A stretch of DNA of 18,760 nucleotides from Candidatus Omnitrophota bacterium (GTDB taxonomy: Bacteria > Omnitrophota > Gorgyraeia > Gygaellales > Profunditerraquicolaceae): NCBI GenBank assembly GCA_049517335.1, contig JBEKSD010000022.1, positions 1 through 18,760 on the forward strand. Reading direction: 5' to 3'. Shown here piece after piece: positions 2,001-18,760 of the stretch. The stretch's first letter is position 1. Each line of letters starts with the position of its first letter. Both the position numbers and the translations under genes were made by a program. The notes below the pieces were generated by a model. It worked only from the letters and a program-made list of their open reading frames with translations, was not told the origin of the DNA and did no database searches.

Positions 2001-2029
2001 TTGACATCCTAATCCCTTTGGGCAATAAT
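2001..2029 (+). promoter_or_regulatory. Putative sigma70 promoter for the 622-aa gene
   Basis: TTGACA (2001-2006), 17 bp, AATAAT (2024-2029). GGAG at 2052-2055 precedes ATG 2061. Confidence 0.5.
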
Positions 2030-2060
2030 AGCTGAAAAGAATGTCCAATCTGGAGAAAAT

Positions 2061-3929
2061 ATGGGAGTTACCCACAAATTAGTGCCGGAACTTATAGAAT
2101 TTATCATCCAGCAAAAAAAGAACAATCCTGGCTTGAGCTGCCGCAGTTTAGCCAGCCTGATTGATAGTAAATTTCAAATCAGAGTATCTAAATCCAGCGT
2201 AAACCAGATACTCAAAGAAGCAGGCCTTAGTCAGCCTGTCGGCCGTAAGACCTCTAAAAGCGGGGAAACATTAAAGGAAAGAATACGCCTCGTTTTAAGC
2301 CCTGAGGCAGAGGCAAAGGAGCAGGCGCATAAAGAGACGGAAGAGAAAGAGCCTAAAGAAGCAGAAGATGAAACGCGTATTGAACAAGGGCGCCTTAAGC
2401 TTGCACAGGAACGCATCCGCCTTGACGCAGAAAAAATAGCCGAAGAAGAGAAGCTGCTTCAGGAAAAAAAGAAGATTGAAAATGAGCTAAGAACTGCGGA
2501 GGAGGCAAAAAAGCTTGCCGAAGAGAAACGGCTTAAGGAAAAGCAGAAAAAAATAGCCGAAGCAAACCGCCTGAAAGCGGTAGAAGAACAACTGGAGCAG
2601 CCGATTGTGTTTGAAGAAAAAGAAAGAGATTGTTCGGGGCTGATCCTTTTAAAAACAATGGATTATCTGTTAGCCGGAAGCAGTAAGTTTAACGCTTTAA
2701 TCAACAGGCAACTGGGAGGGACAGAAAAAGAAACAGCTGTTTTTAATGAAGGGTTTGTTTATTATTCTTTTCTTGAAAAAACACATACGGGGTTTTCTCT
2801 CTTGAGTGCGCTTTTAGACACAGATATAGCCGCCGATAAATTCAGGGATTATTTTTCCCGGGTCCAAGAGATTAAAACTTTACCCATTGAGCTTTCCAGC
2901 GCGCTCGCTGATATTTTTAAAGAAATCAGGTGCTTAAAGATTATTTTTGTGGACGGAAGCTTCCTTTATCTGGACGCGGATTTCTACACCACATGGTCTA
3001 CGCAATATACGCCTTATGACTTTTCCGCCTGCGTTAATAAAGTAAAAAGCGACCTGAATAAATATTTTCTGAATACCCGCCCGCTGGTCCTTTTTATGGC
3101 TCCCGGATATGATTTTCCTTCAAAAGAATTTATGGGCCTGATCTTGAATTTTAATTTTGAAAGGAATACTCCCCAGACTATCACGCTCTACGATAATAAA
3201 CTCGCCGAAATTTCCAGTGTGCGCCTTACCTCAAGGAAAACAAAATACCAGCTGGTCTTCGGGTTATGGCCGTGGCAATTTGTGGGCGTGCGTACTGTGA
3301 AAAGCTTGGGCGAATTTGTCTCATACCGCTTGGGAAAGCTTAATAACGATTTCTGCCTTGCGGATATCCAGCTTGAGCTTATGCATCCGGAAACAAAACA
3401 AAAAGTTTTATTGAACGGTTGCGCTTTAAAAAATTCCCTTCCTGAGCAGACACGGCTTGTTATTTTGACAAATGCGCGTAAAGGCACTTTTAAGCTGGAG
3501 GAACTTGCGGAGATGTATCTATGTAAGTGGCCGAATCAGGAAGAAGCCTTTCAGGACTATTCAAGGAAAGTTGAACTTTTTACCTATACCGCCGATTCAC
3601 AAAAATTCTTATCCCCGGATTTTTTGAAGGAAAAACTAGAAAAGGCGAAGGATGCAAACAGCATATTTACTATCTATCTGGAATTATTGGAGTTATATCT
3701 TAAATGGCATTTTCTGCCCACGGGTTACGAAGAAAAAGATTTCCAGACCATGAAATCAAGGTTTTATGACCTAACCGTACACGTTACTCCCAAGGAAAAT
3801 ATCACTAAGGTAACTTTTAGTGTGCCTGCCGGCTACGCTTATTCCCGGGACTTGGAATACCTCCTCCGGCGCCTGAATGAAAGAAACATTGAATTTTATC
3901 CCGGTAAGCCGGTTAAATTTTCTCTGTAA
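2061..3929 (+). CDS. Hypothetical protein: N-terminal HTH, E/K-rich coiled coil, C-terminal region resembling a degenerate DDE transposase
   Basis: The N-terminus PGLSCRSLASLIDSKFQIRVSKSSVNQILKEAGL resembles a transposase-type HTH. Residues about 80-185 form a charged coiled coil. LVILTN...EELAEMYLCKWPNQEEAFQDY resembles the IS4-superfamily 'LxTN...Yx2RWxxE..F' region. The ORF is secure; the product call is inference. Confidence 0.65.
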   Translation: MGVTHKLVPELIEFIIQQKKNNPGLSCRSLASLIDSKFQIRVSKSSVNQILKEAGLSQPVGRKTSKSGETLKERIRLVLSPEAEAKEQAHKETEEKEPKEAEDETRIEQGRLKLAQERIRLDAEKIAEEEKLLQEKKKIENELRTAEEAKKLAEEKRLKEKQKKIAEANRLKAVEEQLEQPIVFEEKERDCSGLILLKTMDYLLAGSSKFNALINRQLGGTEKETAVFNEGFVYYSFLEKTHTGFSLLSALLDTDIAADKFRDYFSRVQEIKTLPIELSSALADIFKEIRCLKIIFVDGSFLYLDADFYTTWSTQYTPYDFSACVNKVKSDLNKYFLNTRPLVLFMAPGYDFPSKEFMGLILNFNFERNTPQTITLYDNKLAEISSVRLTSRKTKYQLVFGLWPWQFVGVRTVKSLGEFVSYRLGKLNNDFCLADIQLELMHPETKQKVLLNGCALKNSLPEQTRLVILTNARKGTFKLEELAEMYLCKWPNQEEAFQDYSRKVELFTYTADSQKFLSPDFLKEKLEKAKDANSIFTIYLELLELYLKWHFLPTGYEEKDFQTMKSRFYDLTVHVTPKENITKVTFSVPAGYAYSRDLEYLLRRLNERNIEFYPGKPVKFSL

Positions 3930-3970
3930 CCATTAAAAAGAAAACGGTTTCAATTTAAGGGCTAGAGACA

Positions 3971-3999
3971 TTGACGCCTGCTTACAGCGGTGTTATATT
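3971..3999 (+). promoter_or_regulatory. Putative sigma70 promoter of the pilin array
   Basis: TTGACG (3971-3976), 17 bp, TATATT (3994-3999) with an extended -10 TG at 3991-3992. A bulged hairpin CTGCTCCCTAT...ATAGGGGCAG (4004-4031) follows in the putative 5' UTR. Confidence 0.65.
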
Positions 4000-4048
4000 T
4001 TATCTGCTCCCTATAATATAGATAGGGGCAGGTAAAAAAGGAAGTAAT

Positions 4049-4210
4049 ATGAAAAAGCCACGGAAGAATAACGCTCAGAGCGCTGTCGAGTTTATTATTA
4101 TTTTCGTTATTGTAGCTGTCGCCTCGGTATTACTGGTGAACAGTATGCCGACTATTTTTAATACGTACATCAATAAATGTACGGGAGCAATAACAGGAGA
4201 TATCCAATGA
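4049..4210 (+). CDS. Flp-like prepilin 1 (53 aa, not in ORF track)
   Basis: Hand translation: MKKPRKNNA|QSAVEFIIIFVIVAVASVLLVNSMPTIFNTYINKCTGAITGDIQ. Basic leader, A|QxxxE class III signal, hydrophobic helix. AAGGA upstream and an ATGA overlap with the next gene. Confidence 0.85.
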   Translation: MKKPRKNNAQSAVEFIIIFVIVAVASVLLVNSMPTIFNTYINKCTGAITGDIQ

Positions 4211-4368
4211 TAATTTTGCAGCGTCGTGGGCAGAATATGATTGAATATACGGTTTTAGTGATGATAGTCGCTGCCGCCTTAATTGCCATGACTACTTATA
4301 TGATGCGTTCAATGAATGCAAGGATTAAACAGACGCAGGATGAATTAAATTATTACCGTGTTGAATAA
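4207..4368 (+). CDS. Flp-like prepilin 2 (53 aa)
   Basis: MIILQRRG|QNMIEYTVLVMIVAAALIAMTTYMMRSMNARIK. Start 4207 is preferred over 4177 because of ATGA coupling and the AGGAG upstream. Confidence 0.87.
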   Translation: MIILQRRGQNMIEYTVLVMIVAAALIAMTTYMMRSMNARIKQTQDELNYYRVE

Positions 4369-4383
4369 AGAAAGGGGTGCAGG

Positions 4384-4557
4384 ATGAAGAGATGTAAGGC
4401 TCAGAGTACGCTTGAATACGTAATTATTCTTGCAGCAATTATCGGCGCAATAGTCCTTGTGGCAAATACCATTTTGAAACCGAAACTACAGGCGAGCTAC
4501 AGCGGCTTAACCGATAAAATGCAGACTAAGGTGGAGCAAGTTAATTTTGGGAATTAG
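4384..4557 (+). CDS. Flp-like prepilin 3 (57 aa, not in ORF track)
   Basis: Hand translation: MKRCKA|QSTLEYVIILAAIIGAIVLVANTILKPKLQASYSGLTDKMQTKVEQVNFGN. AAGGGG RBS upstream. Confidence 0.87.
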   Translation: MKRCKAQSTLEYVIILAAIIGAIVLVANTILKPKLQASYSGLTDKMQTKVEQVNFGN

Positions 4558-4581
4558 TTTTTAATATAGGGAGGTGAAAAA

Positions 4582-4917
4582 ATGTTGAAGCTTATGAGAA
4601 GGGGTCAAAGCACGGCAGAGTATGCCATAGTTATCGGCTTGGTCATTGCCGCGGCTGTAGCTATGCAAGTCTATGTAAAGCGCGGCTTACAGGGTAAAAT
4701 CAAAGTAGCCACTGATTATACCGATTCGGATGCGGCCAGCGTCGTCGGTAATGCCGGACAATATGAGCCGTATTATCAGTCATCGGATATGACAGGGACA
4801 CATACTACGAGTCTCACAGAAAATACTGCAACGGGTGGCGCGGTTACCAGGACTACAGGAAATGATACCAGCACTAGAACAGGAACTTCTACTGTAGGCG
4901 CTGTGCAGAATCCTTAA
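4582..4917 (+). CDS. Flp/Tad prepilin 4 with Thr-rich tail
   Basis: RRG|QSTAEYAIVIGLVIAAAVAMQVYVKRGLQGK. Strong RBS GGAGGTG. Confidence 0.9.
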   Translation: MLKLMRRGQSTAEYAIVIGLVIAAAVAMQVYVKRGLQGKIKVATDYTDSDAASVVGNAGQYEPYYQSSDMTGTHTTSLTENTATGGAVTRTTGNDTSTRTGTSTVGAVQNP

Positions 4918-4944
4918 TAAATTTTGTTCAAAAGGAGGTTTAGA

Positions 4945-5253
4945 ATGAATAAACGCAGGATGCGTGGCCAGGGTACTTTGGAGTATGTTATTCTGACCGG
5001 GTTTGTGGTTGCAGCACTTATTGCCATGGGTGTTTACATGAAGCGCGGCTTTCAGGGCAGGTTGCGTGAATCTACTGACCAGATCGGCGAGCAGTATTCA
5101 GCGCAGAATACTACGACAAATTATACGACGACCACTAATACAGTTCAGGAAGATAACCTGGCTGCTGGCGGCATAACTACAACTACTGTTTCAGAAAATA
5201 CCCAGACAAAAACCGGCAGTGAGAATGTTGCGGCTCTGAATACTGAACAATAA
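4945..5253 (+). CDS. Flp/Tad prepilin 5 with Thr-rich tail
   Basis: MNKRRMRG|QGTLEYVILTGFVVAALIAMGVYMKRGFQGR. AGGAGG at 4933-4938 favours ATG 4945 over TTG 4924. Confidence 0.9.
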   Translation: MNKRRMRGQGTLEYVILTGFVVAALIAMGVYMKRGFQGRLRESTDQIGEQYSAQNTTTNYTTTTNTVQEDNLAAGGITTTTVSENTQTKTGSENVAALNTEQ

Positions 5254-5259
5254 AAGTGG

Positions 5260-5613
5260 GTGATTAATATGCGTCGGGGCCAAGCTACGCTTGACTATGT
5301 CTGCTTGTTAGGTATTTTGATCGCTACGCTCATAGCTATGGGTATTTATATGAAACGTGGCTTCCAGGGAAAATACCGCGAATTAGGTGAACAGATTGGT
5401 TCGCAGTATTCTCCGAATGCAACCGTTTCAACTTTAACTAATCAGACTATTTCAGACACAAACTCTACTATAACAAATACCGTAAATAAAGTTTATAGTG
5501 CAGCAGGAGTTACAATTTCAGCTCAAAACCAACAAGATGATACTCAAGGAAGCAGTGAAATGCATTCGCGTACTCAGGATACAACCGGTGCGTTGGAGAG
5601 CGGGGGGGATTAA
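5260..5613 (+). CDS. Flp/Tad prepilin 6 (Asp instead of Glu at +5)
   Basis: RRG|QATLDYVCLLGILIATLIAMGIYMKRGFQGK. Start is GTG 5260 or ATG 5269. Confidence 0.87.
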   Translation: MINMRRGQATLDYVCLLGILIATLIAMGIYMKRGFQGKYRELGEQIGSQYSPNATVSTLTNQTISDTNSTITNTVNKVYSAAGVTISAQNQQDDTQGSSEMHSRTQDTTGALESGGD

Positions 5614-5981
5614 TGATCAAGATATTTAGTTCCAGAAAAGCCCAGAATTTGACGGAATTGGCCCTGCTTATCGGTGTCGTAGCCATGGTTTTTATAAGTA
5701 TGGAGGTTTATTTTAAGCGTGGTTTGCAGTCAAAAATAAAAAATATGACTGATAACTACATGACTAGTGGTGTGCTTGGTGGCGGTAACTTAGTATGGCC
5801 GGCTAATCAGGAAATTTATGCAACAGACATGCATAATTATGCGGTCCTGAATGCAAAGACCACAACGAATTCAAGCAGTACCGTAAATGTTGCGACTTTA
5901 GCCGGTGGAGGCACGGTTGCAACATCCCAGGTAGATATGAACGTTCCGGCATCGAGTTCCCATAGCGAAGCAACTTATTAA
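5613..5981 (+). CDS. Flp/Tad prepilin 7
   Basis: RKA|QNLTELALLIGVVAMVFISMEVYFKRGLQSK. TAATG overlap with the previous gene. Confidence 0.87.
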   Translation: MIKIFSSRKAQNLTELALLIGVVAMVFISMEVYFKRGLQSKIKNMTDNYMTSGVLGGGNLVWPANQEIYATDMHNYAVLNAKTTTNSSSTVNVATLAGGGTVATSQVDMNVPASSSHSEATY

Positions 5982-5995
5982 GACGGTGAGGTAAA

Positions 5996-6832
5996 ATGCT
6001 AAATCATAAAGGACAGGCAGTTACAGAGATGGCAATTTTTGGGACGTTAATTATTGCGGCTTTTGCTTTTGTTATAATGTTTAGCGAACGCATAAACCGC
6101 CAGCAATCCTATATCATGCAAGGATTCCGCGAATCGTTATATGAGGCGCGCACCTTACAAAATCCGGTTAGCTATACAAAAATTGCTGATCGCCGCATGC
6201 CCAATGTTTCCTCTCCCATGACTTTAGGCAGCCAAGAGACATTCAACACTACTAACAATACTATGTGGGGAAATGACTTTGCCAAATTGGATCAACCACA
6301 AATTTATTATAAAATCAATGATGCTAATTTAATACAAGTTGCGGAATCTCTTTCTACTAGTATTAGCGGCGGAGGGGGTTCCGGAGCAGTAATTACGCCG
6401 GTAATAACAAACGGTGTAATTACCGGTTTCACTATTAACTCAGGTGGTTCAGGTTATACTTCTGCTCCCACTATTACCATTTACGGTGGTAGCGGCACAA
6501 GCGCAACGGCAACGGCAGTAATAACAGATGGTGTTGTCACTGGTGTTACTATCACATCCGGAGGTTCAGGCTATGTTCCTGCACCTTCAGGAAATGTAAG
6601 CGAAGTCACTACGACTCAACAAACGACTCACACAGAAAACGAACAGACTTTAACAAAATCAGCTAGCGTAGATTCCGTAAGCGTCAGGCAGCTTAAGGCT
6701 CAAGATACGCTCATTGAGACTTCTCCAGATTATAATCAGACTTTTTACCTTGGCCCGGGTGGAAAATATTATGTTAACGACTCAGGCGGTGAGTCTAGGT
6801 CGGGTTCCTTGACTGCGGCGGGGGGGAGGTAA
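5996..6832 (+). CDS. TadE-like minor pilin carrying a tandem 39-aa beta repeat
   Basis: HKG|QAVTEMAIFGTLIIAAFAFVIMF N-terminus. GGTGAGG RBS. Internal Gly/Thr-rich repeat. Confidence 0.85.
   Translation: MLNHKGQAVTEMAIFGTLIIAAFAFVIMFSERINRQQSYIMQGFRESLYEARTLQNPVSYTKIADRRMPNVSSPMTLGSQETFNTTNNTMWGNDFAKLDQPQIYYKINDANLIQVAESLSTSISGGGGSGAVITPVITNGVITGFTINSGGSGYTSAPTITIYGGSGTSATATAVITDGVVTGVTITSGGSGYVPAPSGNVSEVTTTQQTTHTENEQTLTKSASVDSVSVRQLKAQDTLIETSPDYNQTFYLGPGGKYYVNDSGGESRSGSLTAAGGR
6362..6589 (+). repeat. Two copies of a 117-nt (39-aa) coding repeat
   Basis: ISGGGGSGAVITPVITNGVITGFTINSGGSGYTSAPTIT (6362-6478) and IYGGSGTSATATAVITDGVVTGVTITSGGSGYVPAPS (6479-6589). Confidence 0.85.
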
Positions 6833-6835
6833 TTA

Positions 6836-7075
6836 ATGAAAAGAAGAGCGCAGGCAACTCTTGAATTTACCTTTGTTTTTGTTATAATAATTGCATTAAT
6901 CTCAAGCTTATTCGTTATGTGGAAATGGTCAACGGATAATATCGTAAAAAGGCAGGAATGGTATAATGGTTCAAGAGTTGGAGCCGGTTCAATAGATACG
7001 CCGGGAGAACCGGAAGCTCAAGCGACAGTTCAACCATTAACGGATACTAATATGGTTTATCCGGAGAACAGATAA
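6836..7075 (+). CDS. TadE-like minor pilin
   Basis: MKRRA|QATLEFTFVFVIIIALISSLFVMW. GGAGG RBS. Confidence 0.87.
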   Translation: MKRRAQATLEFTFVFVIIIALISSLFVMWKWSTDNIVKRQEWYNGSRVGAGSIDTPGEPEAQATVQPLTDTNMVYPENR

Positions 7076-7077
7076 GA

Positions 7078-8565
7078 ATGTTTTTTTCCTGGCTTATAGA
7101 AAATAAGCATTTTAAAAAGGGGAGTGATATTAAAGGACAGATCACTCCCCTTTTGATTGTAATTACGGTCGTGCTTCTTATTTTAGCTTTGGTTACAATC
7201 AATGTAGGTCGTGTTGCGCTGGATAAAACCTACTCTTCTACCGCTGCTGACGCCGGAGCGCTCGCCGCCGCCTCAATATATGCCGCAGCTTTTAATGAAC
7301 TGGCGCAGTATAATCACGATTATTTATGGATGACTTATGTCGATAATTATGCAGCAATGCTTATGCTGCATGGTGAGGCGCAAGATGACCTTGATTTTGC
7401 CATAGGGCTTACTTCAACAGGGCTTGCTCTCTTGGATTCCGCCTACGCATATCTTCTTACTCAGACCCCTGTCGCATGTCCAGTCAACCTGTATACGTAT
7501 TATTCAAGTGCTGCTTGGTTTTTTGCAGCCAGCGCTGATTTTACTGAGGCGGCAGCATATACGAACCAATTTATTGCCGCTGCTTCATATATGCTTTCCA
7601 TAGTTAATAGCCACCATCTGAATACAGATGATGCCTATTGCCAGATGCGGACTATGATGGATGATTATAACAGTTCTAGTAATGATACCGGGTATTCTTA
7701 TGCGTTTAGCAATAGCGGCATCTTGGATAAACTATCAACAAATCAACAGAACGTATTTAGTGCTTGGCTGTCATCACAGAGCACTCCGCCTGCATATACC
7801 TCGGGCAGTTATTCTTGGCAGGATAGCCTTGCTCAAAACCACAGCGTGAATGTGAATGTAGCTGTTCCGACAATAACTTCTTATGAGTTGCAGCACACAA
7901 ACTACGGCTACCAAAAAGAATGCGACGTTATTGATGGTATGATTTCAACCGGCAATACTATAGTGACAATTTTAGGCGTCCAGGCATCATTGTGCGCTAT
8001 CGCTGCTACATTTTGTCTGACCTTGTCTGCCGCAGCGTCAGAAGCTTATACTACGTTTTGGACGGGTGTAGATATGATGATGGCATGTTGTCCTTGTTGC
8101 TGTTGTGGTCCTAACTGCGGTGGTTGTGCTTGTTGTGCTGCAGGTGCCGTGCTAATTGTTCAATCATATGGCATGGCGGCAGCTGTATGGGCAAAATGGG
8201 GTTATGTCGATGCCCTTGCAACTATAATTATTGTTGCGATAGATGCATTGGTTACTATTGGAACGGCTGTTGGATTGTATTTTTTAAAGGACGCAACAGA
8301 TGAAGCCTTGTATGGCTTTGAAATGGATAGTACTTTTTCAAGCAAGAGTTGTAGCGATGCCAGCGACCTTCTTATCGTAAAGATAAGCGAAGTTATTTTG
8401 CCGACATGGAAGGTCACTTGTTGCGAAACCCAGACCCATCCCGGAACCAGCCAAGGAATATTTACTACTGCTTATCCGTCTGTGCGTAGTTGTGCTAAGG
8501 CTAGTTTTGACGGCGGAGATGTGGGAAGTTTCACGAAGACCTACGACTCAAAGATAACTGATTAA
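7078..8565 (+). CDS. TadG-like pilus-associated protein with Cys cluster and hydrophobic Ala-rich helices
   Basis: KG|QITPLLIVITVVLLILALVTINVGRV...STAADAGALAAA is the Tad/TadG N-terminal signature. The protein has 19 Cys, including CCPCCCCGPNCGGCACC. Confidence 0.82.
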   Translation: MFFSWLIENKHFKKGSDIKGQITPLLIVITVVLLILALVTINVGRVALDKTYSSTAADAGALAAASIYAAAFNELAQYNHDYLWMTYVDNYAAMLMLHGEAQDDLDFAIGLTSTGLALLDSAYAYLLTQTPVACPVNLYTYYSSAAWFFAASADFTEAAAYTNQFIAAASYMLSIVNSHHLNTDDAYCQMRTMMDDYNSSSNDTGYSYAFSNSGILDKLSTNQQNVFSAWLSSQSTPPAYTSGSYSWQDSLAQNHSVNVNVAVPTITSYELQHTNYGYQKECDVIDGMISTGNTIVTILGVQASLCAIAATFCLTLSAAASEAYTTFWTGVDMMMACCPCCCCGPNCGGCACCAAGAVLIVQSYGMAAAVWAKWGYVDALATIIIVAIDALVTIGTAVGLYFLKDATDEALYGFEMDSTFSSKSCSDASDLLIVKISEVILPTWKVTCCETQTHPGTSQGIFTTAYPSVRSCAKASFDGGDVGSFTKTYDSKITD

Positions 8566-8591
8566 TAAGTAAAAGATTAAGAAGGGAGAAT

Positions 8592-9455
8592 GTGATGATA
8601 AAAAGAATTGCAGGTATAATCATTTGTTTTCTTTGCTTTACTATGCCCTTGCGGGCTGAAATTCCTTTACCTGAGGATGCGACATTGGTGAAGGCAGGGG
8701 AACCTGATACTAGCCCAATGCACTTGAGTATAAAGATGTATCGCACTTCGTTGTCGCTAAATAAGCTCAATGATTTTTTTAGCCGGGCAATGCAGCAGGC
8801 CGGGTGGCATGAAGATAAAAGCGCTAAAGGCTCTTTAAGGTTTCAAAATGGCCAACGCATGGCAATGATCTTTCCTTTGCCTACCTTGACCCGCGAAGGA
8901 AGGATCGCATTCACCGTTACTGAGGGCAAGGTTCTTTCCAAGGAAGATTTTGTGGCTACCCAAAAGGATAAGCCTGACGCGCTTATTTTTATGCCTCCAT
9001 ACCCGAATGCAAAACAGATGTATCTCTGGGATTTGCCAACCGGAGGTGTCTCGGCAGCCTATATTACGACAGACGCTATTCAGGATGTGTTGTTTTTTTA
9101 CAAGGCAAAGATGCTCGATTATGGCTGGTTTCTTGCTGAGGAGGCGCCAATTGTCAGGACTCCAATTTCATATGATTCTAAGGGAATTAAAACAATATTG
9201 GCAAAAGAACATATAAATGCTAAAGTTAAAGCTAAAGGCGAAGAGGAAAAAGCCTCCCTGACTTTTAAAAAGTCCACAGGAGAAAGTTGTTTTATCAACC
9301 TATTTTCTACTAGCGTGGATGCAGATTCATTTTTGGGAAATCCAAAGAACTTAGCTGCAATTACTGCGAATCTAAAAGATTGGCCGAAGACTTCTTCAGA
9401 AAGGAGAACAGAAATTCTGGTGACTTATAATGAAGTTAAGAAATTACATAAATAA
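8592..9455 (+). CDS. Secreted hypothetical protein with two related domains
   Basis: Sec-like signal MMIKRIAGIIICFLCFTMPLRA|E. Repeated pattern IPLPEDA...YRTSLSLNKLNDFFSRAMQQAGW and MPPYPNA...YITTDAIQDVLFFYKAKMLDYGW. Confidence 0.8.
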   Translation: MMIKRIAGIIICFLCFTMPLRAEIPLPEDATLVKAGEPDTSPMHLSIKMYRTSLSLNKLNDFFSRAMQQAGWHEDKSAKGSLRFQNGQRMAMIFPLPTLTREGRIAFTVTEGKVLSKEDFVATQKDKPDALIFMPPYPNAKQMYLWDLPTGGVSAAYITTDAIQDVLFFYKAKMLDYGWFLAEEAPIVRTPISYDSKGIKTILAKEHINAKVKAKGEEEKASLTFKKSTGESCFINLFSTSVDADSFLGNPKNLAAITANLKDWPKTSSERRTEILVTYNEVKKLHK

Positions 9456-9603
9456 AGCTCAAAGTGTATTTGAATATGCTATAATAATTATTCTTATGGT
9501 GGCTGCTCTTATTGCCATAGGTAAGTTTTTACAGAGGTCTTTGCAGGGTAGATACCGCCAATCAGCAGATACTTTTAGCAGCGGTGAGCAATACCTGCCT
9601 TAA
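9430..9603 (+). CDS. Flp-like prepilin (57 aa, not in ORF track)
   Basis: Hand translation: MKLRNYINKA|QSVFEYAIIIILMVAALIAIGKFLQRSLQGRYRQSADTFSSGEQYLP. Overlaps the previous gene by 26 nt. Confidence 0.85.
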   Translation: MKLRNYINKAQSVFEYAIIIILMVAALIAIGKFLQRSLQGRYRQSADTFSSGEQYLP

Positions 9604-9626
9604 AATATAATACGGAGAAATAACGC

Positions 9627-10472
9627 TTGTTAATAATCACAATATTTTTATTCCTTGCCGCAGTAACTATAATCGTCTATAGTCTTCTTCCCGGTGTTTT
9701 TCAGAAAGCTGAAACTTGGCAGCTCGCTAAGGAAAAGCAAGTTGCCAAGGAGATGGAAAAGCTTTATTTTGACAAGAATCCGCGCAGCATAGTACAATTA
9801 TACGCAATCCTGCCGATAATTTTAGGCGTTGGAGGATATCTCCTATCCAGGGCTTCTATTTTTACAATTATAGGAGCAATTATTGGCTTTGCAATACCCA
9901 ACTTTATTCTAAAAATGCGTTTTGCTAAACGAAAGCAGAAATTCAGCGTGCAACTACTTGATGCGATTAACCTTATGTCGAGTTCACTTAAGGGTGGATT
10001 GAGCCTGTTACAAGCAGTTGAAGTGGTGGCTGAGGAGATGCCTCCCCCTATTTCTCAGGAATTTGGTTATGTGATCCGCGAGAATAAAATTGGCGTTTCT
10101 TTTGAAAGCAGCCTTGAGCATTTAAAAGAACGCATGCCTGCTGAGGAGTTGACTTTAATTGTAAGCTCAATTCTTGTAGCGCGCGAAACAGGAGGAGACT
10201 TAACAAAAGTTTTTAGCAGGCTCTCCGTGACTATACGCGATAACAACAAGCTGAAAGAAAATATCAAGACCTTAACTTTACAGGGAAAACTACAGGCAGC
10301 AATTATGTCTCTTCTGCCTTTTTTCTTTGTTGGATGGGTTGTAACGGTAAATAAGCATCACTTTGATATAATGCTGCAAAACGACATGGGAAGGTTTCTT
10401 TTGATTCTGGCTGTCGTTCTGCAGGTTGTGGGAATGTTTTTAATCCGTAAGTTCAGTACTATAAAAGTTTAA
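9627..10472 (+). CDS. tadB: Tad inner-membrane platform protein TadB (T2SSF family)
   Basis: FSVQLLDAINLMSSSLKGGLSLLQAV...PPPISQEF...RETGGDL...IKTLTLQGK with multiple TM segments. GGAG precedes the TTG start. Confidence 0.92.
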   Translation: MLIITIFLFLAAVTIIVYSLLPGVFQKAETWQLAKEKQVAKEMEKLYFDKNPRSIVQLYAILPIILGVGGYLLSRASIFTIIGAIIGFAIPNFILKMRFAKRKQKFSVQLLDAINLMSSSLKGGLSLLQAVEVVAEEMPPPISQEFGYVIRENKIGVSFESSLEHLKERMPAEELTLIVSSILVARETGGDLTKVFSRLSVTIRDNNKLKENIKTLTLQGKLQAAIMSLLPFFFVGWVVTVNKHHFDIMLQNDMGRFLLILAVVLQVVGMFLIRKFSTIKV

Positions 10473-10477
10473 TAACT

Positions 10478-11332
10478 ATGATTTTAATCTTATTGATCAT
10501 TGTTGTCGGTGGTGTAATTATCCTGATAGGGATTTCGCAGGCAAGCCATACAACGCTTAAGCCTTTCAATTTCCAGCAAAATACTAGTAGGCATAATTTT
10601 ATGCGGCCGCATGAGGCTCCGATTTCAATTCCTTTTATTCAAAATATCTTAGAGAGGACCGGTTGGGGGGCGACTTTCAGGAGAAAGATTGACGCAGCCC
10701 ACCTCCGCCTTAACCCCCAGGTATTTTTCCTTGTAAAAATTGCCGTTGCGATCCTGTTATTTGTCGTCAGTTTGGCAATTTATGGCAAATTCAATCCGTT
10801 TATAATTATCCCCATCTTAATTGGCTATACAATCCCAGATTTTTACCTTAAAATGAAAATTAACAAGCGTAAAGCCCAGATTATAAGGGTTATGCCTGAG
10901 ACTATTGACTTGCTGGGGCTTTGTATCGAGGCAGGCCTTGATTTTACAAATGCCGTAAAGTGGGTTATTGACAAGACCCCACCTACTCCCCTTGTTGAGG
11001 AATTAGTGTTTGTTTTGGAGGAGATTAAATGGGGAAAACCCAGAATTCAGGCGTTAAAGGATATGTCGAGGCGCCTTGATATTCCTGAAGTAACCTCTTT
11101 TGTACAGACGATAATTCAGGCGGAAAGAATGGGTACGCCTGTGGCCGAGGCCTTTACCATACTCTCTGAAGACAGCCGTATGCAACGTTTCCACCGCGGC
11201 GAGCGCATTGCTCTGCAAGCTCCCATCAAGATACTTTTTCCTCTCATTTTCTTCATTATGCCTGTTATTGGCATAGTCATAGGCGGGCCGATCCTTCTGC
11301 AATTCATGCACGGCGGCCTAGTTCCTAAATAA
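10478..11332 (+). CDS. tadC: Tad inner-membrane platform protein TadC (T2SSF family)
   Basis: MPETIDLLGLCIEAGLDF...GKPRIQAL...IIQAERMGTPVA...APIKILFPLIFFIMP. Confidence 0.93.
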   Translation: MILILLIIVVGGVIILIGISQASHTTLKPFNFQQNTSRHNFMRPHEAPISIPFIQNILERTGWGATFRRKIDAAHLRLNPQVFFLVKIAVAILLFVVSLAIYGKFNPFIIIPILIGYTIPDFYLKMKINKRKAQIIRVMPETIDLLGLCIEAGLDFTNAVKWVIDKTPPTPLVEELVFVLEEIKWGKPRIQALKDMSRRLDIPEVTSFVQTIIQAERMGTPVAEAFTILSEDSRMQRFHRGERIALQAPIKILFPLIFFIMPVIGIVIGGPILLQFMHGGLVPK

Positions 11333-11474: not shown

Positions 11475-11885
11475 TTATCCTTTAGGCAATATGGATTTTA
11501 CCCAAGTAAGGAATCTTTCTGAATGCTTAGATAAGCTAACCGCTTCGCTTTGTGTAATTAACCTTTGATCATATTCAACAATATTCTTTATTGGAATCAA
11601 ATTACGTAAATGGCTAATATTTTCTTCAAGCGTTTTTATGTTTTACTAAGCTACTAATAAGTTTAAGGATATCATCATGCTTCGGACTTGCGCTTCTTAC
11701 TTCGTGCAGAGAGACTAACAGTGCATCTGCTGAAGAGATGCCAGCATAAATGGCATTTAAACCAGCGGCGTTCCATTTTTCTTTTATAAGACTATCTTGC
11801 CGCTTGAGAAAAATTCTTCCGCTTTTTTGAGGTAATTTATATAATCTGACTTTGAAACGTGGCTAGTTTTAATATTTTTTGTCAT
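11475..11885 (-). pseudogene. HEPN domain protein of an MNT-HEPN pair, two frameshifts
   Basis: Reconstructed: MTKNIKTSHVSKSDYINYLKKAEEFFSS / QDSLIKEKWNAAGLNAIYAGISSADALLVSLHEVRSASPKHDDILKLISSLVKHK / LEENISHLRNLIPIKNIVEYDQRLITQSEAVSLSKHSERFLTWVKSILPKG. Frameshifts near 11800 and 11632. ATGA overlap with the MNT stop. Confidence 0.75.
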
Positions 11886-12501
11886 AAATTGATTAATTCG
11901 GATATCTTCTTACCGTAGATGACGTTACCAGTGCGAACAATTTCATTGATAAAGACGTCTTTCTTTTTGAATTTATTCTGGAATTCATTTATCAAAAGTG
12001 GTACGCTTGCCAGATAATTCCCAAAAAGCAATGTTATCTTTTTTTCTACCTCAGATAATTTTTTGGCGATAAGCAACTTGTTTTTTGAGTGCGGATATAT
12101 AATAACGATATCTATATCGCTATCGGCCGAGGCGCCACCTCTAGCAAAACTAGCGAATAGAATAATACTTAAGGGCCGCGGTGACTTAATTTCTCTTAAG
12201 ATAATCCGGGCAATACGGCCAAAAATATCTCCTTCTTTTTCAAATGCTGGACGAATAATTTCTTTAACTAAGAAATTCTCTGCGTTAAGCCAATAAACTA
12301 AAGAACTACCTACAGAACGCATACTTACTACACCATGCCTAGTTAAATCCTTTAGGGCAGTGTGGACTTTTACATGCGATAAACCAACATTCTTGACAAT
12401 CTCCCTACCGTTTAACTGAGCCTGGCTTTTGACTAGAAATCGCAGTATTTTTACCTTGGAATATTGCCCTAAATATTATCAAGCGGCCTGTCTAATAACA
12501 A
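11882..12501 (-). pseudogene. Winged-HTH + minimal nucleotidyltransferase (MNT) fusion, frameshifted near the 5' end
   Basis: AGGAGG RBS (12507-12512) and TTG 12501 give MLLDRPLDNI. A 1-nt loss near 12470 follows, then LGQYSKVKILRFLVKSQAQLNGREIVKNVGLSHVKVHTALKDLTRHGVV in frame with track ORF 11882-12322. MNT motif LFASFARG...DSDIDI (usual GS is AS). Confidence 0.8.
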
Positions 12502-13506: not shown

Positions 13507-13534
13507 TTGACAGCGTCGGAGAATATGGTATATT
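13507..13534 (+). promoter_or_regulatory. Putative sigma70 promoter for riboswitch and giant gene
   Basis: TTGACA (13507-13512), 16 bp, TATATT (13529-13534) with an extended -10 TG at 13526-13527, immediately 5' of the aptamer. Confidence 0.7.
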
Positions 13535-13551
13535 TGGAGTGTAGTAAAGAG

Positions 13552-13645
13552 CGGTAGTAAAGAGTAAACTTAGAGTAATCTAAGGACACAAAGCCACGGG
13601 TCCTTAAATAGTAAAAGCTTCGCAGGACAGCCGGGTTGCCGATTC
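13552..13645 (+). ncRNA. GEMM-I / c-di-GMP-I class riboswitch aptamer, A20 variant (candidate 3',3'-cGAMP sensor)
   Basis: GAGTAAAC, P2 CTTAGA/GTAA/TCTAAG (GNRA loop), GACACAAAGCCACGGGTCCT...AGGACAGCCGGGTTGCCGA matches the GEMM-I consensus GGCAAAC...GACGCAAAGCC...GGGTTRCCGA. There is a compensatory U-A pair at 13565/13588. Confidence 0.9.
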
Positions 13646-13686
13646 CGACGAGAAAAGTTGGGTTTGACAATCCGGATTTTATTTTT
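13631..13686 (+). terminator. Riboswitch expression-platform terminator overlapping the aptamer 3' strand
   Basis: CCGGGTTGCCGATTCCGAC (13631-13649) pairs with GTTGGGTTTGACAATCCGG (13657-13675) at 17 of 19 positions, counting G-U. TTTTATTTTT (13677-13686) follows. Confidence 0.78.
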
Positions 13687-13811
13687 AGTACTTCTTAATC
13701 GGTTTTAAAAACGATTAAATAACCAATTATGAATAGCTCAAAAACCGAAATTAAAATAGGCAGATTTGGGGTAAGGGGAGTAGTTATTTTTTATATAATA
13801 TATAAAAAAAT

Positions 13812-16800
13812 ATGAATACTGAAAAGCCACAGACCGATGAAGACCATTTAGAGCAACCCGAGATCAAGCCGAAATTTAACTCTAGTTTTAAGACCTGGAT
13901 CCGCGTAGTTGCTTTTATTGTTGTAGCGGTCTTTTTGCCGGAACAGGCTGCCCAAGCAATGGAGTATGATTGGCGCGTTCTCTGGCAGAAACCAGCCATA
14001 GGCTCATTTACTCCTGGCTATCTTCGTGACCTTCGCAATATCGATACCGCCTTAGCAATCAAAAATATCCTCAAAGATATAACAAATAAGCCAATAACAA
14101 GCATAAAAATATCGTCCAATCTGACTGTGAATTTGGATAAGCCTTTACAAATGTCCAATCAGAAAATTGAAGAGATTTTTGATTGGCTAAAGGGTCGTCC
14201 TTGCGGATCCAAAGCTCTATATGATTTCCTCGTTTATCAAGGCAATAAAGTTGAGGAACAAGATATTGCCATTATGGCTTTAACTGTGGATATCTTAAGT
14301 GAAATAGTCAAACCTGAGGGCAATCCCCAAGTCATTAAAAACTCACTTTTTGCCCTTGCTAAAGCATCAGAATTCTTTGGTAGTAAGCTTTATCCCATTA
14401 AAGCGGATTTGAATAATCTCAAAGAATTCGCTCCATTTATTGCGCATATCAAAGGTGACCATTATGTTTTGGTCACTCGTATCGTAAATGATAAGGTCTA
14501 TTTTAGCGATAACCACAGAGAAGAATTTCTACCGTTTGACCTATTCATTCAACGCTTCAGCGGCTTTGCTTTGATTAATCAATCTACCCTTCCTAAAAGA
14601 GCAGTATTTCTTACTCCACAAGAGAGTAAAACCATACTAGGCGCTAATGTATCTACTCAAGCTGATTTGAATAGCGCCATGTCTAGCGCAGATGTGCAAA
14701 AGTACGTATCTTCCGTAAGAAATAGTTTGCATAGTGAATATAATAAGATTCAGACCAGTGCAATGATTAGTATCGGTATTAGCTTGGGTACAACAGTGCT
14801 TGGGGGATTGGCGGCAGGGGGGGCATTCGGCGGTTGGTTTGGCCAGGGAGATTACTTGGGTATGGATATGGCTACTCGTTTTGCAATTACCGGAGCAGTA
14901 CTTACACCTGTGGCTCGCGGGGTGCTTAGCGGTAATTGGAATGATTGGTATTTGTATGCTGGTGCCGGTGCTGCTGTTGGCGGGCTTGCTGGATGGGCAA
15001 TGCAGTCCATGTCAGACACACAATGGCAACAATTTACATGGGCTTTTAATTCGAAAAGCACATGGAGCTGGGCTACTTGGCCGGCAACAGGCGCCTTAGG
15101 CGGGTTGGTCATCGGTGGCCTTTCAACCGGTAAATGGTTTAGCGGTGACTCTCTTACATATGCCATGTATGGTGCTGCTGGAGGATTAGGGTTACGCACT
15201 TTATCAGGGCTTGGTTCCGTATACTCAAGTAAAGGCGATTGGTCTAATTTTATTGGTCAAGACTCTGCTACTACTAGCCTCAGCGGGAATCTAAGTTTTA
15301 CCAACCCTTCACCATATGCGCCATTTACTTCAAAGGCCTATACGGTTTATCAAGGAATGTTAAATGCTCAGATAGTTAATCTTGTTAGCTACGGCCTTAG
15401 TGCTACCGGCATGAACCAAAAAGATGCAGAGTTATTGGGCGCAGGTCTAAGCGGAGCTTTCTTGGGAGCTACGGGCAGTTTGGGTGGTTTGACTAATGGA
15501 TTAGACTCAGCCTGGGAACGCGCAATTTCAGGATCTTTAACTACCCTATCTTCAACATTCATCCGACAGGAGGCACTTGATCTTGGTGTTAAGAGTACGG
15601 CACTAGCTTCTTATATCGGTAATGTTGGAGGCTTGGTGGTAAATAGTGTTGTTAATGGCACTATGTTGTATGCAAATAATTTATCTATAGCCCCAGCTCC
15701 AGGTACTAGTATTTCCAACAACATTTTAGTAGGTGACTATGATTCTCTGAAGAGCACGGTGGTATTAGGTCAAAATCAAAATATAAATGATGTTATTGCT
15801 AGTCCAAACAACAACTACTTTGATTACATAGGGAAAGATATAAACTATACTTTCGAGGCTAACGGCAGTGCTTTATTAAAGGGCTTGGTTTCAAATAGTG
15901 TTGCGGAGTTAGTAACGCGTTATCCCGGAATGGTAGGTTTGTCAGCATCAGATATAAAGTCAATGCCATATGCCACTGCTATCGGTTCTGCTGTAGGTGG
16001 TTTCGTCCCTTCTTCCACGATGACTATTCAACAGAGTATTATGAATGGCTTATTGACTGGTGGACTTACGATTTTTGAAGCTAAGATTGAGTCTAAGTTG
16101 ACGAAACTTGATCCTACTGCAATGACTTCAGTAATGGCAGCTTTTGTAGCTGATGCCGGCGCTGCGTTAGTTAGAGGATTTGTGGGTTCAGTATTGATGC
16201 CGTCTCCCCAAACTGTGTTAACAATAGATGCAAATGGCCAAACTCAGACGCAAACTGCGATCCCGACAGGCGGCGCCCTTAGTATGATGGGTTATCAGTT
16301 AGGCAAGGATTCTTTTGATGTTTTAAGCTTTGGTTATGCTGGCAAAGGAGAGGGAGCATATAATGACATTGTTTATATAAATAAACTTACCACTGCATTT
16401 TCACCGGTTACGCCAGAGCTTCTCAAACAGCAGATGGAGGCATATTCATATAAAGGAACGCTGAGCGCGGATGGTACAACCGCTACAATCACTCTTAGCA
16501 ATGGAACTCAAGCAACATTAACTAAGGTTAATGGATGTTACTATGATGCTAATGGCGAGAAATGGGACAGAACTAGTGGTGGTAAATTCTATTTGGATAG
16601 TAGTAATACCGCTACCGTTACATCCAGCTGGTTGTCATCTCTGGTGAACGGTTGGGGAGAGTTGGCGCACGATATTTATCAGCAAGGCGCGGTTGACAGT
16701 ATGGTGGCAACTATTGGTTCTTTTCAGGGTGCGCGGCAGTTGTTTGGATTGCCGATAACCTTTCTAACGAATGTTAATTACGCAGATGGCGTCAGAGAGC

Positions 16801-18760
16801 AAATGTTTGAATTTTACAGTAAATCAGAGTCCAATCAAAATGGACAATCCATGACAAAAGACACATTCAGTCTTTATGATCAGTATTCAAGCACTCCGGT
16901 TACCACTCAAACTTTCTTGGATGAAGCATTGCTAAATAATGGTAATATCGCACATTCCTATTTACCAATTTCCGGTTCGTGGACTGATGCAAAAGGGAAT
17001 GAAATTAGCCCTTGGTCTTACCGTAATTACACCCTGAATGAGAATGGTTCTATTTCTGCAAAAAACGGGAATCAAACAGTAACCTTGCCAAATAATCTTG
17101 GAGATTTCTATTCTGATGCAGATACTTTTAACGTCGTTCAAGCAGGTTCGGATTGGGCGATTTCGCCTTTTACTCATACAGTAGATCCCATACAGTTTAT
17201 AATTATGGGGACCCAGATGATAGATGCCAATGGCGCAATAGTTTCAGCTGACCTTGTGTTTAATGGCGGCAGCAACGTAACTATAGACAATGGCTGGGCG
17301 TACGATGGGACTATCAGTAACGGTTTGAAACCTATTAATAAGAGCCTTAGCCAGCCTTTAGTGGGTGGGCGGGGAGGCGAAAACAATGAAACTGGCCTTT
17401 ACCGAGGTTATACTACTTTTACTACTGTTGGTGATACTACTGTTGGTAATTTTAATTTTGACTTGACTGAAGACGGAACAGCCGCGAAGGTTAATCAGTT
17501 TGGTGTAGTAGTTAGTCCCGGTGATGTGATTTATGGCCAGGGCAATGATAGTATCACAGGTCTTGGTAAGGATATTAATCCGAGGAATCTTCTTTACACC
17601 ACAGAAGATGGCTCGTATCAATTCAGAGTAACTTCTGATGGAACTCTTTTTGGTAGTCCTAGTCTTGGAGATCATGGTGTTATTTCCGGATTTGACCAAA
17701 CAAATAATTCTTCAGTAAAGTTAGGTGTTTTTAATTATTATGCGGATAGCACAACAACTTCTTTGATAATCGGTGCAGGCCTAGGTTATTCTGTCGATAG
17801 GGGGTGGGTTGAAGGTTTTACGCCGGAAGCAGGAACTCTTTCTAATAATAATCAGTCACTAACATTAGGAAAAGATACATGGATTTTTCTTACTGCTTTC
17901 GGAGCTGTGGGTAACACTGGTGACGATAGTAGTTACAAAACCGGGACATTGAGTTCGCAACCTTTAGTAGGAATTGATTTTTCTAATAATTATGATGTTA
18001 ATGGAAACGAATTCTTCAACCCGTTATTATTAACTGCCGCCGGGGCACAATATACTTTTACTTCCGGAGAAGTAGCTCTTGTCAATTCTAACATCCAGAC
18101 CCAGAAGGTCGATGCTTCTCCCAGCGCCAAGGGTACTGTAGCAGGCGCAACAGCAAAAGGTGATACAGCCGCCACACTTTACGGCGAGGGCGCTTTCGGT
18201 GAGGCAGTTGCCGGCAAGAACGGTATGGATATCGGCCAGGGCCTTTATTATGATGTCAATGGTCCTAACAGACAAAATGTCTTCTTGAACGGATATTTAA
18301 CCTACAGCGGCTATGATACCAAAGAATATAACGAAGGCAATTTTACTTCTACCTATTTTTATGCTCCCGGTGCCTTCTACGGTTATGTTAGTAGTAATCC
18401 CAATGAGATTGCTAACTGGCATGGAGTTACCGCTACCTTCCAGCGGGATAATTTAACCGCCGGTGTTGATTCTGAGGGTAGTAATTATGATATTAGTGTT
18501 GGTTTTTATGATTATATGATGTCCCAAGTTTACAATCTCAAGGGTTTAAACGCCACAGTTACTTTTGATGCTAACGGTAATAAAAAATGGAGTAACGTTT
18601 CTATTTCAAGCGGAACTGCAACAACTTCGATTCTTACAGATTATTTTGATGGGCAGACTGATGTAGCTAATCTAACCGGCCTTCTTACCGATGCTAATGG
18701 CAATGTTCTGTTCCATACTACCGGTGGCTCACAATACCTCTTCAGGGCTGAGGAAGCCGG
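13812..18760 (+). CDS. Giant exported protein, 3'-partial (>1649 aa): signal segment, C39 peptidase-like domain, double-glycine-type motif, Gly-zipper hydrophobic region, beta-rich region
   Basis: Hand translation from ATG 13812 shows no stop to the window end. FKTWIRVVAFIVVAVFLPEQAAQA is signal-like. PCGSKAL (C131), PFIAHIKGDHYVLV (H217), KVYFSD (D233) and FIQRFSGFAL fit the C39 pattern. Confidence 0.92.
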   Translation, partial: MNTEKPQTDEDHLEQPEIKPKFNSSFKTWIRVVAFIVVAVFLPEQAAQAMEYDWRVLWQKPAIGSFTPGYLRDLRNIDTALAIKNILKDITNKPITSIKISSNLTVNLDKPLQMSNQKIEEIFDWLKGRPCGSKALYDFLVYQGNKVEEQDIAIMALTVDILSEIVKPEGNPQVIKNSLFALAKASEFFGSKLYPIKADLNNLKEFAPFIAHIKGDHYVLVTRIVNDKVYFSDNHREEFLPFDLFIQRFSGFALINQSTLPKRAVFLTPQESKTILGANVSTQADLNSAMSSADVQKYVSSVRNSLHSEYNKIQTSAMISIGISLGTTVLGGLAAGGAFGGWFGQGDYLGMDMATRFAITGAVLTPVARGVLSGNWNDWYLYAGAGAAVGGLAGWAMQSMSDTQWQQFTWAFNSKSTWSWATWPATGALGGLVIGGLSTGKWFSGDSLTYAMYGAAGGLGLRTLSGLGSVYSSKGDWSNFIGQDSATTSLSGNLSFTNPSPYAPFTSKAYTVYQGMLNAQIVNLVSYGLSATGMNQKDAELLGAGLSGAFLGATGSLGGLTNGLDSAWERAISGSLTTLSSTFIRQEALDLGVKSTALASYIGNVGGLVVNSVVNGTMLYANNLSIAPAPGTSISNNILVGDYDSLKSTVVLGQNQNINDVIASPNNNYFDYIGKDINYTFEANGSALLKGLVSNSVAELVTRYPGMVGLSASDIKSMPYATAIGSAVGGFVPSSTMTIQQSIMNGLLTGGLTIFEAKIESKLTKLDPTAMTSVMAAFVADAGAALVRGFVGSVLMPSPQTVLTIDANGQTQTQTAIPTGGALSMMGYQLGKDSFDVLSFGYAGKGEGAYNDIVYINKLTTAFSPVTPELLKQQMEAYSYKGTLSADGTTATITLSNGTQATLTKVNGCYYDANGEKWDRTSGGKFYLDSSNTATVTSSWLSSLVNGWGELAHDIYQQGAVDSMVATIGSFQGARQLFGLPITFLTNVNYADGVREQMFEFYSKSESNQNGQSMTKDTFSLYDQYSSTPVTTQTFLDEALLNNGNIAHSYLPISGSWTDAKGNEISPWSYRNYTLNENGSISAKNGNQTVTLPNNLGDFYSDADTFNVVQAGSDWAISPFTHTVDPIQFIIMGTQMIDANGAIVSADLVFNGGSNVTIDNGWAYDGTISNGLKPINKSLSQPLVGGRGGENNETGLYRGYTTFTTVGDTTVGNFNFDLTEDGTAAKVNQFGVVVSPGDVIYGQGNDSITGLGKDINPRNLLYTTEDGSYQFRVTSDGTLFGSPSLGDHGVISGFDQTNNSSVKLGVFNYYADSTTTSLIIGAGLGYSVDRGWVEGFTPEAGTLSNNNQSLTLGKDTWIFLTAFGAVGNTGDDSSYKTGTLSSQPLVGIDFSNNYDVNGNEFFNPLLLTAAGAQYTFTSGEVALVNSNIQTQKVDASPSAKGTVAGATAKGDTAATLYGEGAFGEAVAGKNGMDIGQGLYYDVNGPNRQNVFLNGYLTYSGYDTKEYNEGNFTSTYFYAPGAFYGYVSSNPNEIANWHGVTATFQRDNLTAGVDSEGSNYDISVGFYDYMMSQVYNLKGLNATVTFDANGNKKWSNVSISSGTATTSILTDYFDGQTDVANLTGLLTDANGNVLFHTTGGSQYLFRAEEA

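Follow-up and report, generated by a model that had tools for sequence, protein, structure and literature searches.

The giant proteins of the Omnitrophota, for which lengths of more than 100,000 residues are in print, raise the standing question of whether such a protein acts as one chain or is cut. The DNA studied here is a whole contig of 18,760 bases (GenBank JBEKSD010000022.1, assembly GCA_049517335.1; referred to below as the window) from a Candidatus Omnitrophota genome of 1.45 Mb, with 42% G+C and a completeness of 92%. It carries the 5' part of a giant gene at 13812..18758 on the forward strand, 1649 codons which are open at their 3' side with no stop up to the contig end. That full-length Omnitrophota giants bear C39 domains near signal peptides at their N-termini has already been described by West-Roberts et al. 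(2023; 10.1101/2023.11.21.568195), who propose autoproteolysis in general, considering either that the C39 domain divides the giants into several polypeptides or that its targets are other proteins, and giving the cleavage points as unknown. A preliminary description of the window, made from its sequence, went further and claimed that the protein cuts itself after A278, at the end of a double-glycine-type motif placed shortly after its own protease domain. The in-silico tests reported here support that claim, the cutting itself being what we infer from them, and on the strength of sequence comparison and modelling we consider it probable that self-cleavage takes place at the bond between A278 and N279. 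What is new is the site itself, its singularity, its position at the exact boundary of conservation and the exporter-free arrangement in cis. The finding names one exact conserved bond, the first concrete predicted cleavage point for these giants.

The features of the protein all lie on the forward strand. Residues 1-49 (13812..13958), as read from the sequence, show a basic n-region, a short hydrophobic core from W29 to L42 and an A-Q-A; they are strongly conserved in 20 homologs and are likely to represent a Sec signal peptide or a signal anchor, and in the former case the signal-peptide cut would fall after A49. Residues 50-115 (13959..14156) form a conserved N-terminal sub-domain preceding the protease, in which D53 and W58 are invariant and the per-residue confidence (predicted local distance difference test, pLDDT) of the AlphaFold2 model discussed below ranges from 35 to 86. 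The C39 papain-like cysteine peptidase domain itself, assigned from Pfam, a PDB sequence profile and the model, occupies residues ~116-258 (14157..14585) and is joined by a variable linker (residues 259-266, 14586..14609) to the motif LTPQESKTILGA (residues 267-278, 14610..14645), a putative tethered leader of the double-glycine type whose predicted scissile bond lies between 14645 and 14646. In the window the motif reads L at -12 (L267, codon at 14610), T at -11, E at -8, S at -7, I at -4, G at -2 and A at -1 (A278, ending at 14645). The remainder, residues 279-1649 (14646..18758), is the chain predicted to be released and consists of Gly-rich hydrophobic segments followed by S/T/N/G-rich sequence; no Pfam family was matched in it, and it shows no similarity to the giant proteins of relatives.

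The identity of the protease is supported by several comparisons. Peptidase_C39 (PF03412) is the sole Pfam family in the 1649 visible residues, matching residues 178-256 with 31.5 bits against a cut-off of 22 and scoring 35.9 bits in a six-frame search of the genome, while an NCBIfam search of the same 1649-residue protein matched nothing. The PF03412 alignment spans profile positions 46-128 of 133, the Cys-bearing N-terminal part being too divergent for the profile, and ends about 11 residues ahead of L267; the PDB sequence profile is weak by itself (6mpz at E 0.01, ComA at 0.058) and does not reach the Cys. The AlphaFold2 model of residues 50-308, for which the 19 sequences of our family profile (A1) served as alignment input, has a mean pLDDT of 80.3 and a predicted TM score of 0.74, and its best Foldseek match in the PDB is 6mpz, that is LahT150 with its leader (E 1.9e-6, TM 0.70 by target, 132 columns), followed by PCAT1, ComA and an HlyB-type C39-like domain (CLD) among 22 matches at E <= 0.001. 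The catalytic Cys (C131, 14202-14204), the catalytic His (H217, 14460-14462) and the third triad position (D233, 14508-14510) stand at the codons of the 13812-18758 open reading frame (ORF) which the preliminary description had assigned to them. When aligned by HMMER with ComA and LahT150, H217 falls on the HY/HF catalytic His of these proteins and D233 on their Asp, and the His-Asp spacing of 16 residues that had been pointed out equals theirs. The reading of the motif likewise held in full, with matches to the leader consensus at -12, -8, -4, -2 and -1, T at -11 and S at -7, as did its placement shortly after the domain and the lack of an ATP-binding cassette (ABC) domain in the visible part. 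Pfam finds no ABC family in the 1649 residues, nor is an ABC domain present in a 14,264-residue ORF of another contig of the genome (C4), which is a possible continuation of the gene; the protein is not a peptidase-containing ABC transporter (PCAT) or ABC transporter maturation and secretion protein (AMS).

The conservation pattern was established with the A1 profile. In a search of 1.84 billion proteins it matched 701 cluster representatives with E <= 0.001, and for 105 of these E was 1e-30 or lower. The representatives stand for clusters at 50% identity; the best 150 were taken, of which 131 cover the columns of the catalytic Cys, the catalytic His and the Gly at -2, and the other 19, which are fragments or cut, were excluded. 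Cys, His and Gly(-2) are each invariant (131/131), and the Gly is therefore as invariant as the catalytic dyad, down to a profile E of 1e-24. Position -4 is I or V in all 131 representatives, 130 have L, V, I or M at -12, and a small residue stands at -1 in 118 (A in 90, S in 16, G in 12), the others having N (8), D (3), T (1) or a gap (1). Among close relatives, the 20 MAFFT-aligned N-termini all carry the motif (L/I)-x-D-x-E-A-K-x-(V/I)-(L/M)-G-(A/S), with Q at -8 in one. A further set of 80 loci was drawn from a collection in which each species is represented by a single genome. All 80 have both the Cys and the His; two of them run into a contig end ahead of the motif, and the 78 which reach the site end it with G-A (73) or G-S (5). 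The co-conservation of triad and motif that had been foreseen thus holds for the Cys, the His and the Gly at -2 but fails for the third triad position, which is taken up below. No Cys-lacking homolog occurs among the representatives covering these columns, which makes co-loss with the motif uninformative; four rows have no residue in the Cys column, being N-terminal fragments or having a divergent N-C-A Cys. Across the 131 representatives, G251, in the FSG motif of the domain, and G277 are 22-34 residues apart, most often 24.

Two clades of the head family depart from this pattern. In a distant one (the P0100-P0150 group of representatives, e.g., P0138 and P0148) the site reads A-F-(V/I)-W-G-(S/N/D) instead of ..ILGA and is directly followed by a conserved K-W-x-D-x-S-x-x-L-P-G-L, unlike in the clade of the window, and in another the site reads ..ILGG and is followed by Y-T-Y. 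Judging from these sequences, the specificity or role of the site may have changed in the ..WG(S/N/D) and ..ILGG clades.

The preliminary description had also predicted that homologs diverge directly after the Gly-Ala, and this is where conservation ends. The comparison rests on 78 sequences anchored on the G-A, namely that of the window and those of 77 loci; three loci were omitted, the two that break off ahead of the motif and one that breaks off seven residues past it. Mean pairwise identity is 15.2% from -24 to -13, rises to 51.9% from -12 to -1, and falls to 11.5% from +1 to +12 and to ~8% from +13 to +36. The motif is an island of conservation, since a variable linker precedes it and unrelated sequence follows. 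Of 61 genomes belonging to the same family and order (that of the window counted), 31 gave a match with residues 1-363 as query, and 18 of the 24 matches of at least 200 bits, the window itself excluded, end at query residues 278-292, although the query extends to 363; four of the others reach 296-326 and two stop early, at 232 and 260. When the protein was compared by BLASTP with seven relatives' giants, similarity was confined to the head, all seven alignments ending at residues 257-287 with no further similarity at E <= 1e-5 beyond it, and this applies likewise to the closest relative, whose head shows 71% identity.

Drops in conservation often coincide with module boundaries, and the same data could be produced by a structural helix or turn which closes the domain at its C-terminal side and is neither substrate nor ligand, the divergence being simply the end of the conserved module. 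AlphaFold2 is indeed confident of the segment as part of the fold, with a pLDDT of 87 and 86 for the linker and motif blocks and a fall to 42 directly after the G-A. A closing helix of this kind is nevertheless quite improbable given that a linker with only 15% identity separates the motif from the domain, that the conserved positions are exactly the C39 recognition positions -12, -8, -4, -2 and -1, and that the motif is predicted to touch the segments of the catalytic Cys and His. This last point comes from a complex prediction in which the chain was split into residues 50-262 and 263-308, and which, together with the fold, bears out the docking of the motif in the active site that the preliminary description had thought worth modelling. 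The interface score ipSAE was 0.76 as against 0.01 for the best of three controls (the ipSAE mark is attained by 58 of 80 solved complexes and by 2 of 110 mismatched pairs), with a contact agreement between runs of at least 66% and a partner pLDDT of at least 58. The predicted interface comprises P130-C131-G132-S133-K134-A135, G215-D216-H217-Y218-V219 and, on the motif side, E271 to V280, and its most certain contacts are those of L267 (-12), S272 (-7) and I275 (-4) on S178-F180, P195-K197 and F252. In LahT150 the residues at -4, -7 and -12 lie in a hydrophobic groove and P1-P3 are extended in the active site (PMC6363468), and the arrangement predicted by our model is the one reported there for LahT150 with its leader. 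Docking in cis looks feasible because of the 22-34 residue spacing and the confident single-chain model; on the model, the cut could also be made between neighbouring copies rather than in cis.

A short motif of this type need not mean much in itself, as one match to the generic pattern [LIVM]x3Ex3[LIVM]xG[GAS] in 1649 residues is not rare: 15 matches were found in 250,639 residues of giant ORFs, a rate of ~6e-5 per residue. However, seven of these 15 stand directly after a C39 domain, in seven of the eight C39-headed proteins examined, where ~0.001 matches would be expected in the 30-residue window after the domain. As the motif is also kept in all homologs examined, a chance likeness to a double-glycine leader has a negligible probability and is in practice refuted. 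The other eight matches are scattered inside the giants at the background rate. A position-specific scoring matrix (PSSM) of the family gives 26-37 at the post-domain site in seven of the eight C39-headed proteins; one of these seven lies outside the training set and scores 28.3, and the eighth, also outside it and with Q at -8 and S at -1, scores 13.1. No internal site rises above shuffled sequence, the best scoring 16.3 against shuffle maxima of up to 18.8 (eight giant or partial ORFs, 236,375 residues). In a six-frame scan of the genome (2.89 million positions), with a PSSM from 78 homologs from which the window's own sequence had been left out, the site is the top-scoring position at 26.0 against a shuffle maximum of 15.3. 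The next three scores, 18.7-21.6, belong to sequences without a G[AS] end, and the single other G[AS]-ending match above the shuffle maximum is marginal (15.8) and lies in the middle of a protein.

These scans bear on the two options raised in the main text of West-Roberts et al. (2023; 10.1101/2023.11.21.568195), in which the C39 domain would mainly cut other targets in trans, either at several sites along the giant or in other proteins, and the adjacent motif would be one of many or incidental. The eight scattered generic matches in ~250,000 residues could be taken in favour of such targets, but they are no more frequent than background, each giant has one PSSM site with its internal scores within those of shuffles, and the sole other G[AS]-ending genome match is the mid-protein one of 15.8; cutting mainly in trans has accordingly little probability. 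Multiple internal cleavage sites were rejected on the PSSM scan and the background rate of the generic matches. One site per protein, in turn, speaks against canonical C39 cutting at many sites. A six-frame search of the 92%-complete genome returned no second C39 domain, only one PF03412 match, by which cutting in trans by a second C39 domain or a PCAT was rejected. With one C39 domain and no better motif match, the sole enzyme-substrate pairing in the genome is that of the protein with itself.

A number of observations weigh against self-cleavage at this site. Solved complexes of C39 domains with leaders exist (6mpz, 6v9z), so that the predictions show likeness and not activity and may reflect memory, and the sequence conservation would fit a bound, uncut pseudo-substrate equally well. 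Position -7 (S272) is A or S in 78/78 close relatives and not Leu, and in the 12 of 131 distant representatives with N, D or T at -1, conserved residues follow the site, a pattern that suits a scissile bond poorly. The D233 position is not conserved (D in 92 of 131, E in 13, Y in 9, S in 6, Q in 5, N in 3, and T, F and K in one each). Six residues before the Cys, where ComA and LahT have Gln, 125 of the 131 have Trp (W125 in the window), in a register set by spacing only, as no profile alignment covers the position. If residues 1-49 are a signal peptide, moreover, the protease would act outside the cytoplasm, unlike the C39 domains of exporters. It should be noted that the oxyanion role of the Gln has itself been questioned for LahT150 (PMC6363468). 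We file the domain as a divergent C39 subfamily and not as a typical member.

Taken together with the conservation and docking evidence, which fits binding as well as cutting, the Trp in place of the oxyanion Gln and the N or D at -1 with conserved residues after it in some distant members could point to a motif that is bound but left uncut by its own C39 domain, in groove and active site alike, holding the protease shut, or the head on the chain, until it is displaced by another substrate or a signal. We regard such a latch as unlikely. Both Cys and His are invariant in 131/131, and -1 is small in 118 of 131, as in true substrates; P1' and the positions beyond it vary freely, which is expected if that side merely has to leave; and the genome scan offered no other candidate substrate.

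The self-cleavage which we favour would proceed as follows. The first 278 residues would form a self-processing head, in which the signal peptide or anchor (1-49) takes the N-terminus to or across the membrane and is followed by the C39 protease (C131/H217), the short variable linker, and an amphipathic helix with the Gly-Ala (267-278). This helix and Gly-Ala would mimic the leader recognised by the C39 proteases of bacteriocin exporters: the helix would set L267, S272 and I275 in the hydrophobic groove of its own or a neighbouring protease copy, and docking would put G277-A278 into the active site. A cut after A278 would then part a ~25 kDa head from the giant hypervariable remainder starting at N279, and might serve to free the chain from its N-terminal anchor or to take off an export or folding handle. 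Here a C39 protease appears to be used with a built-in substrate and without an ABC exporter, and such a self-removing module of protease and site might serve as a self-cleaving tag.

The closest known systems are the C39 domains of AMS/PCAT proteins (LahT, PCAT1, ComA), which share with the window the fold, the Cys/His dyad and an Asp 16 residues after the His. Their substrates are of a similar kind, a helix that is hydrophobic at -12, -7 and -4, has Glu at -8 and ends in Gly-Gly/Ala/Ser (PMC6363468). The leader consensus given in the same source is Leu(-12)-x3-Glu(-8)-Leu(-7) with a hydrophobic -4; L267, E271 and I275 fit it and S272 at -7 departs from the Leu. In contrast to these proteins, the domain of the window has no ABC fusion, its substrate is tethered in the same chain, and it is probably extracytoplasmic because it is located behind a signal-peptide-like segment; its family has Trp for Gln, A or S at -7 and a variable third triad residue. 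Double-glycine leader peptides differ further in that they form the N-terminus of a small precursor, whereas the motif of the window lies at residues 267-278 of the protease chain; LTPQESKTILGA would work like a leader yet is outside the class of double-glycine precursors. As to prior work on the giants, the window displays the same feature as the "Archaeovorins" (10.1101/2023.11.21.568195), a C39 domain near a predicted signal peptide in a giant gene next to a type II/Tad-like secretion locus, the difference being that a single conserved site directly after the domain is identified here. That preprint uses neither "double-glycine" nor "autoproteoly" in its main text, and a 2026 preprint which defines a 24-protein PF03412 architecture cluster is, in the text available to us, silent on cleavage (10.64898/2026.06.07.730766). 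Our search found no description in the literature of a C39 protease with a double-glycine site in one chain, supplements, which may hold relevant domain tables or peptides, lying outside that search.

Some more distant systems follow a comparable logic. Viral leader proteases such as the papain-like Lpro of foot-and-mouth disease virus are N-terminal and free themselves by one C-terminal cut. In both cases a papain-like cysteine protease starts a very long polypeptide, but lineage and recognition site are unrelated, and the Lpro type is cytosolic and viral. The CLDs of HlyB-type exporters, which share the fold (3zua and 8dck in Foldseek), are not known to carry the catalytic Cys. In the family of the window, by contrast, that Cys is invariant. 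CLDs have been considered as potential substrate chaperones (10.1101/2023.11.21.568195). MARTX and large clostridial toxins are, like the giants, very large secreted proteins, and are self-processed in cis by a C80 cysteine protease (PMC8277102). This C80 domain differs in belonging to another peptidase family, in being activated by inositol hexakisphosphate and in its internal position in the chain. It also cuts at several sites, after Leu. LapG of Pseudomonas is a separate periplasmic cysteine protease which removes the N-terminal module of LapA at Ala-Ala under the control of cyclic di-GMP (c-di-GMP) via LapD. The resemblance lies in the giant surface protein, the pair of small residues and the c-di-GMP link, a c-di-GMP-type riboswitch preceding the gene in the window; LapG, however, is a separate protein of another family, and its control runs via LapD and not a riboswitch.

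The homologous N-termini in relatives head open frames of up to 68,606 residues; behind the matches to residues 1-363 stand frames of 12,627, 17,444, 30,624, 31,476, 42,913, 57,756 and 68,606 residues, those of 31,476 and 68,606 being closed by stops at both ends. Several genomes hold more than one gene with the head module, three matches being present in each of G011 and G025 and two in each of G018, G053, G056, G060, G030 and G043, which means that the head is reused on different bodies within one genome. The motif and head mark at sequence level where a giant gene truly begins, which is of use in fragmented assemblies. A wider reading of these data is possible, although we hold it to be doubtful: signal peptide, C39 domain and tethered leader would together be a portable handle that excises itself and that alone is conserved across the phylum in giants which cannot otherwise be aligned. 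Its expression would be turned on by a c-di-GMP-type riboswitch, it would start export beside the Tad machinery, and its one self-cut after Gly-Ala would set free a hypervariable cargo that can reach tens of thousands of residues. Such a handle would resemble polymorphic toxins in having a constant head and a variable body, and viral leader proteases in the logic of self-excision, a logic not known to have been reported for C39 enzymes.

As to the missing 3' part of the gene, the 14,264-residue frame on contig C4 (3-42794, forward strand), which is open at the 5' end of the contig, may be its continuation. This frame encodes two GT4 glycosyltransferase domains, RNHCP, a protein kinase, several methyltransferases, DUF294, FHA and Fic domains, and 31 hydrophobic segments. 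Joining the window (contig C22) to C4 was rejected, as the ends do not overlap and no colinear homolog bridges them.

The 5' leader of the giant gene contains, on its strand, a sigma-70-like promoter at 13507..13534 (TTGACA, a spacer of 16, TATATT, TG extended; 11/12 matches), which is a consensus match only, and an aptamer of the c-di-GMP-I-GGC riboswitch type at 13554..13644 (RF03167; 58.3 bits against a gathering score of 59, E 1.6e-12). A terminator-like hairpin with a U-run follows at 13631..13686, its 5' arm being shared with the 3' strand of the aptamer in the minimum free energy fold of 13550-13700 (z-score -3.54). This hairpin is a candidate expression platform; a simple terminator scan did not call it. 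The sequence TTGACAATCCGG at 13655 was considered as a promoter and dropped because it is the 3' arm of the hairpin. Among the 19 loci scanned, that of the window included, 15 have RF03167 ahead of the homologous gene and in the same orientation; 14 of the 15 matches reach the gathering score with 59-76.6 bits, the window standing at 58.3, and the other four loci have no match at E <= 0.001. Neither of the two preprints on Omnitrophota giant proteins uses the terms "riboswitch" or "c-di-GMP" in its main text, and the one passage on "cyclic di-GMP" concerns PilZ genes downstream and GGDEF domains inside the giants (10.1101/2023.11.21.568195). A conserved DNA box, GGGGTAAGGGGA(AA), lies at ~13766-13781 on the forward strand, 30-45 nt ahead of the start codon, and recurs at this place in at least 13 of the 20 loci; in most relatives it is followed after ~20 nt by ATATAGGTAA, which may hold the ribosome-binding site. 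As the box is in frame with the ORF and is read as G-V-R-G-K in several relatives, naive ORF calls start too early.

The upstream part of the window is taken up by a Tad/Flp-type pilus locus (2-11332), which like the giant gene lies on the forward strand. It includes a CpaF-like ATPase (2-1564), four tandem Flp-like pilin ORFs (4582-5981) with a processing motif of the type G-Q(S/A)T.EY, cut between Gly and Gln, a TadE/G-like protein (7078-8565) with a Cys-rich hydrophobic stretch, CCPCCCCGPNCGGCACC, and two TadB/C-like platform proteins (9627-11332), and it also holds DUF192 and a 622-residue protein with a helix-turn-helix and a coiled coil. In all five relatives tested, the homologous giant gene is preceded on its own strand by a TadC homolog at a distance of 0.6-8 kb. 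Giant genes in such a setting are known from earlier work (Seymour et al. 2023, PMC10066038; West-Roberts et al. 2023). The relatives which carry a taxonomic label are nearly all Candidatus Omnitrophota or Omnitrophica, together with some Planctomycetales and single Ignavibacteriae and Margulisiibacteriota. Between the Tad locus and the giant gene, on the reverse strand (11882-12322), lies a gene for a 146-residue protein with a nucleotidyltransferase domain (PF01909, PF18765), which could be the MNT half of an MNT/HEPN pair.

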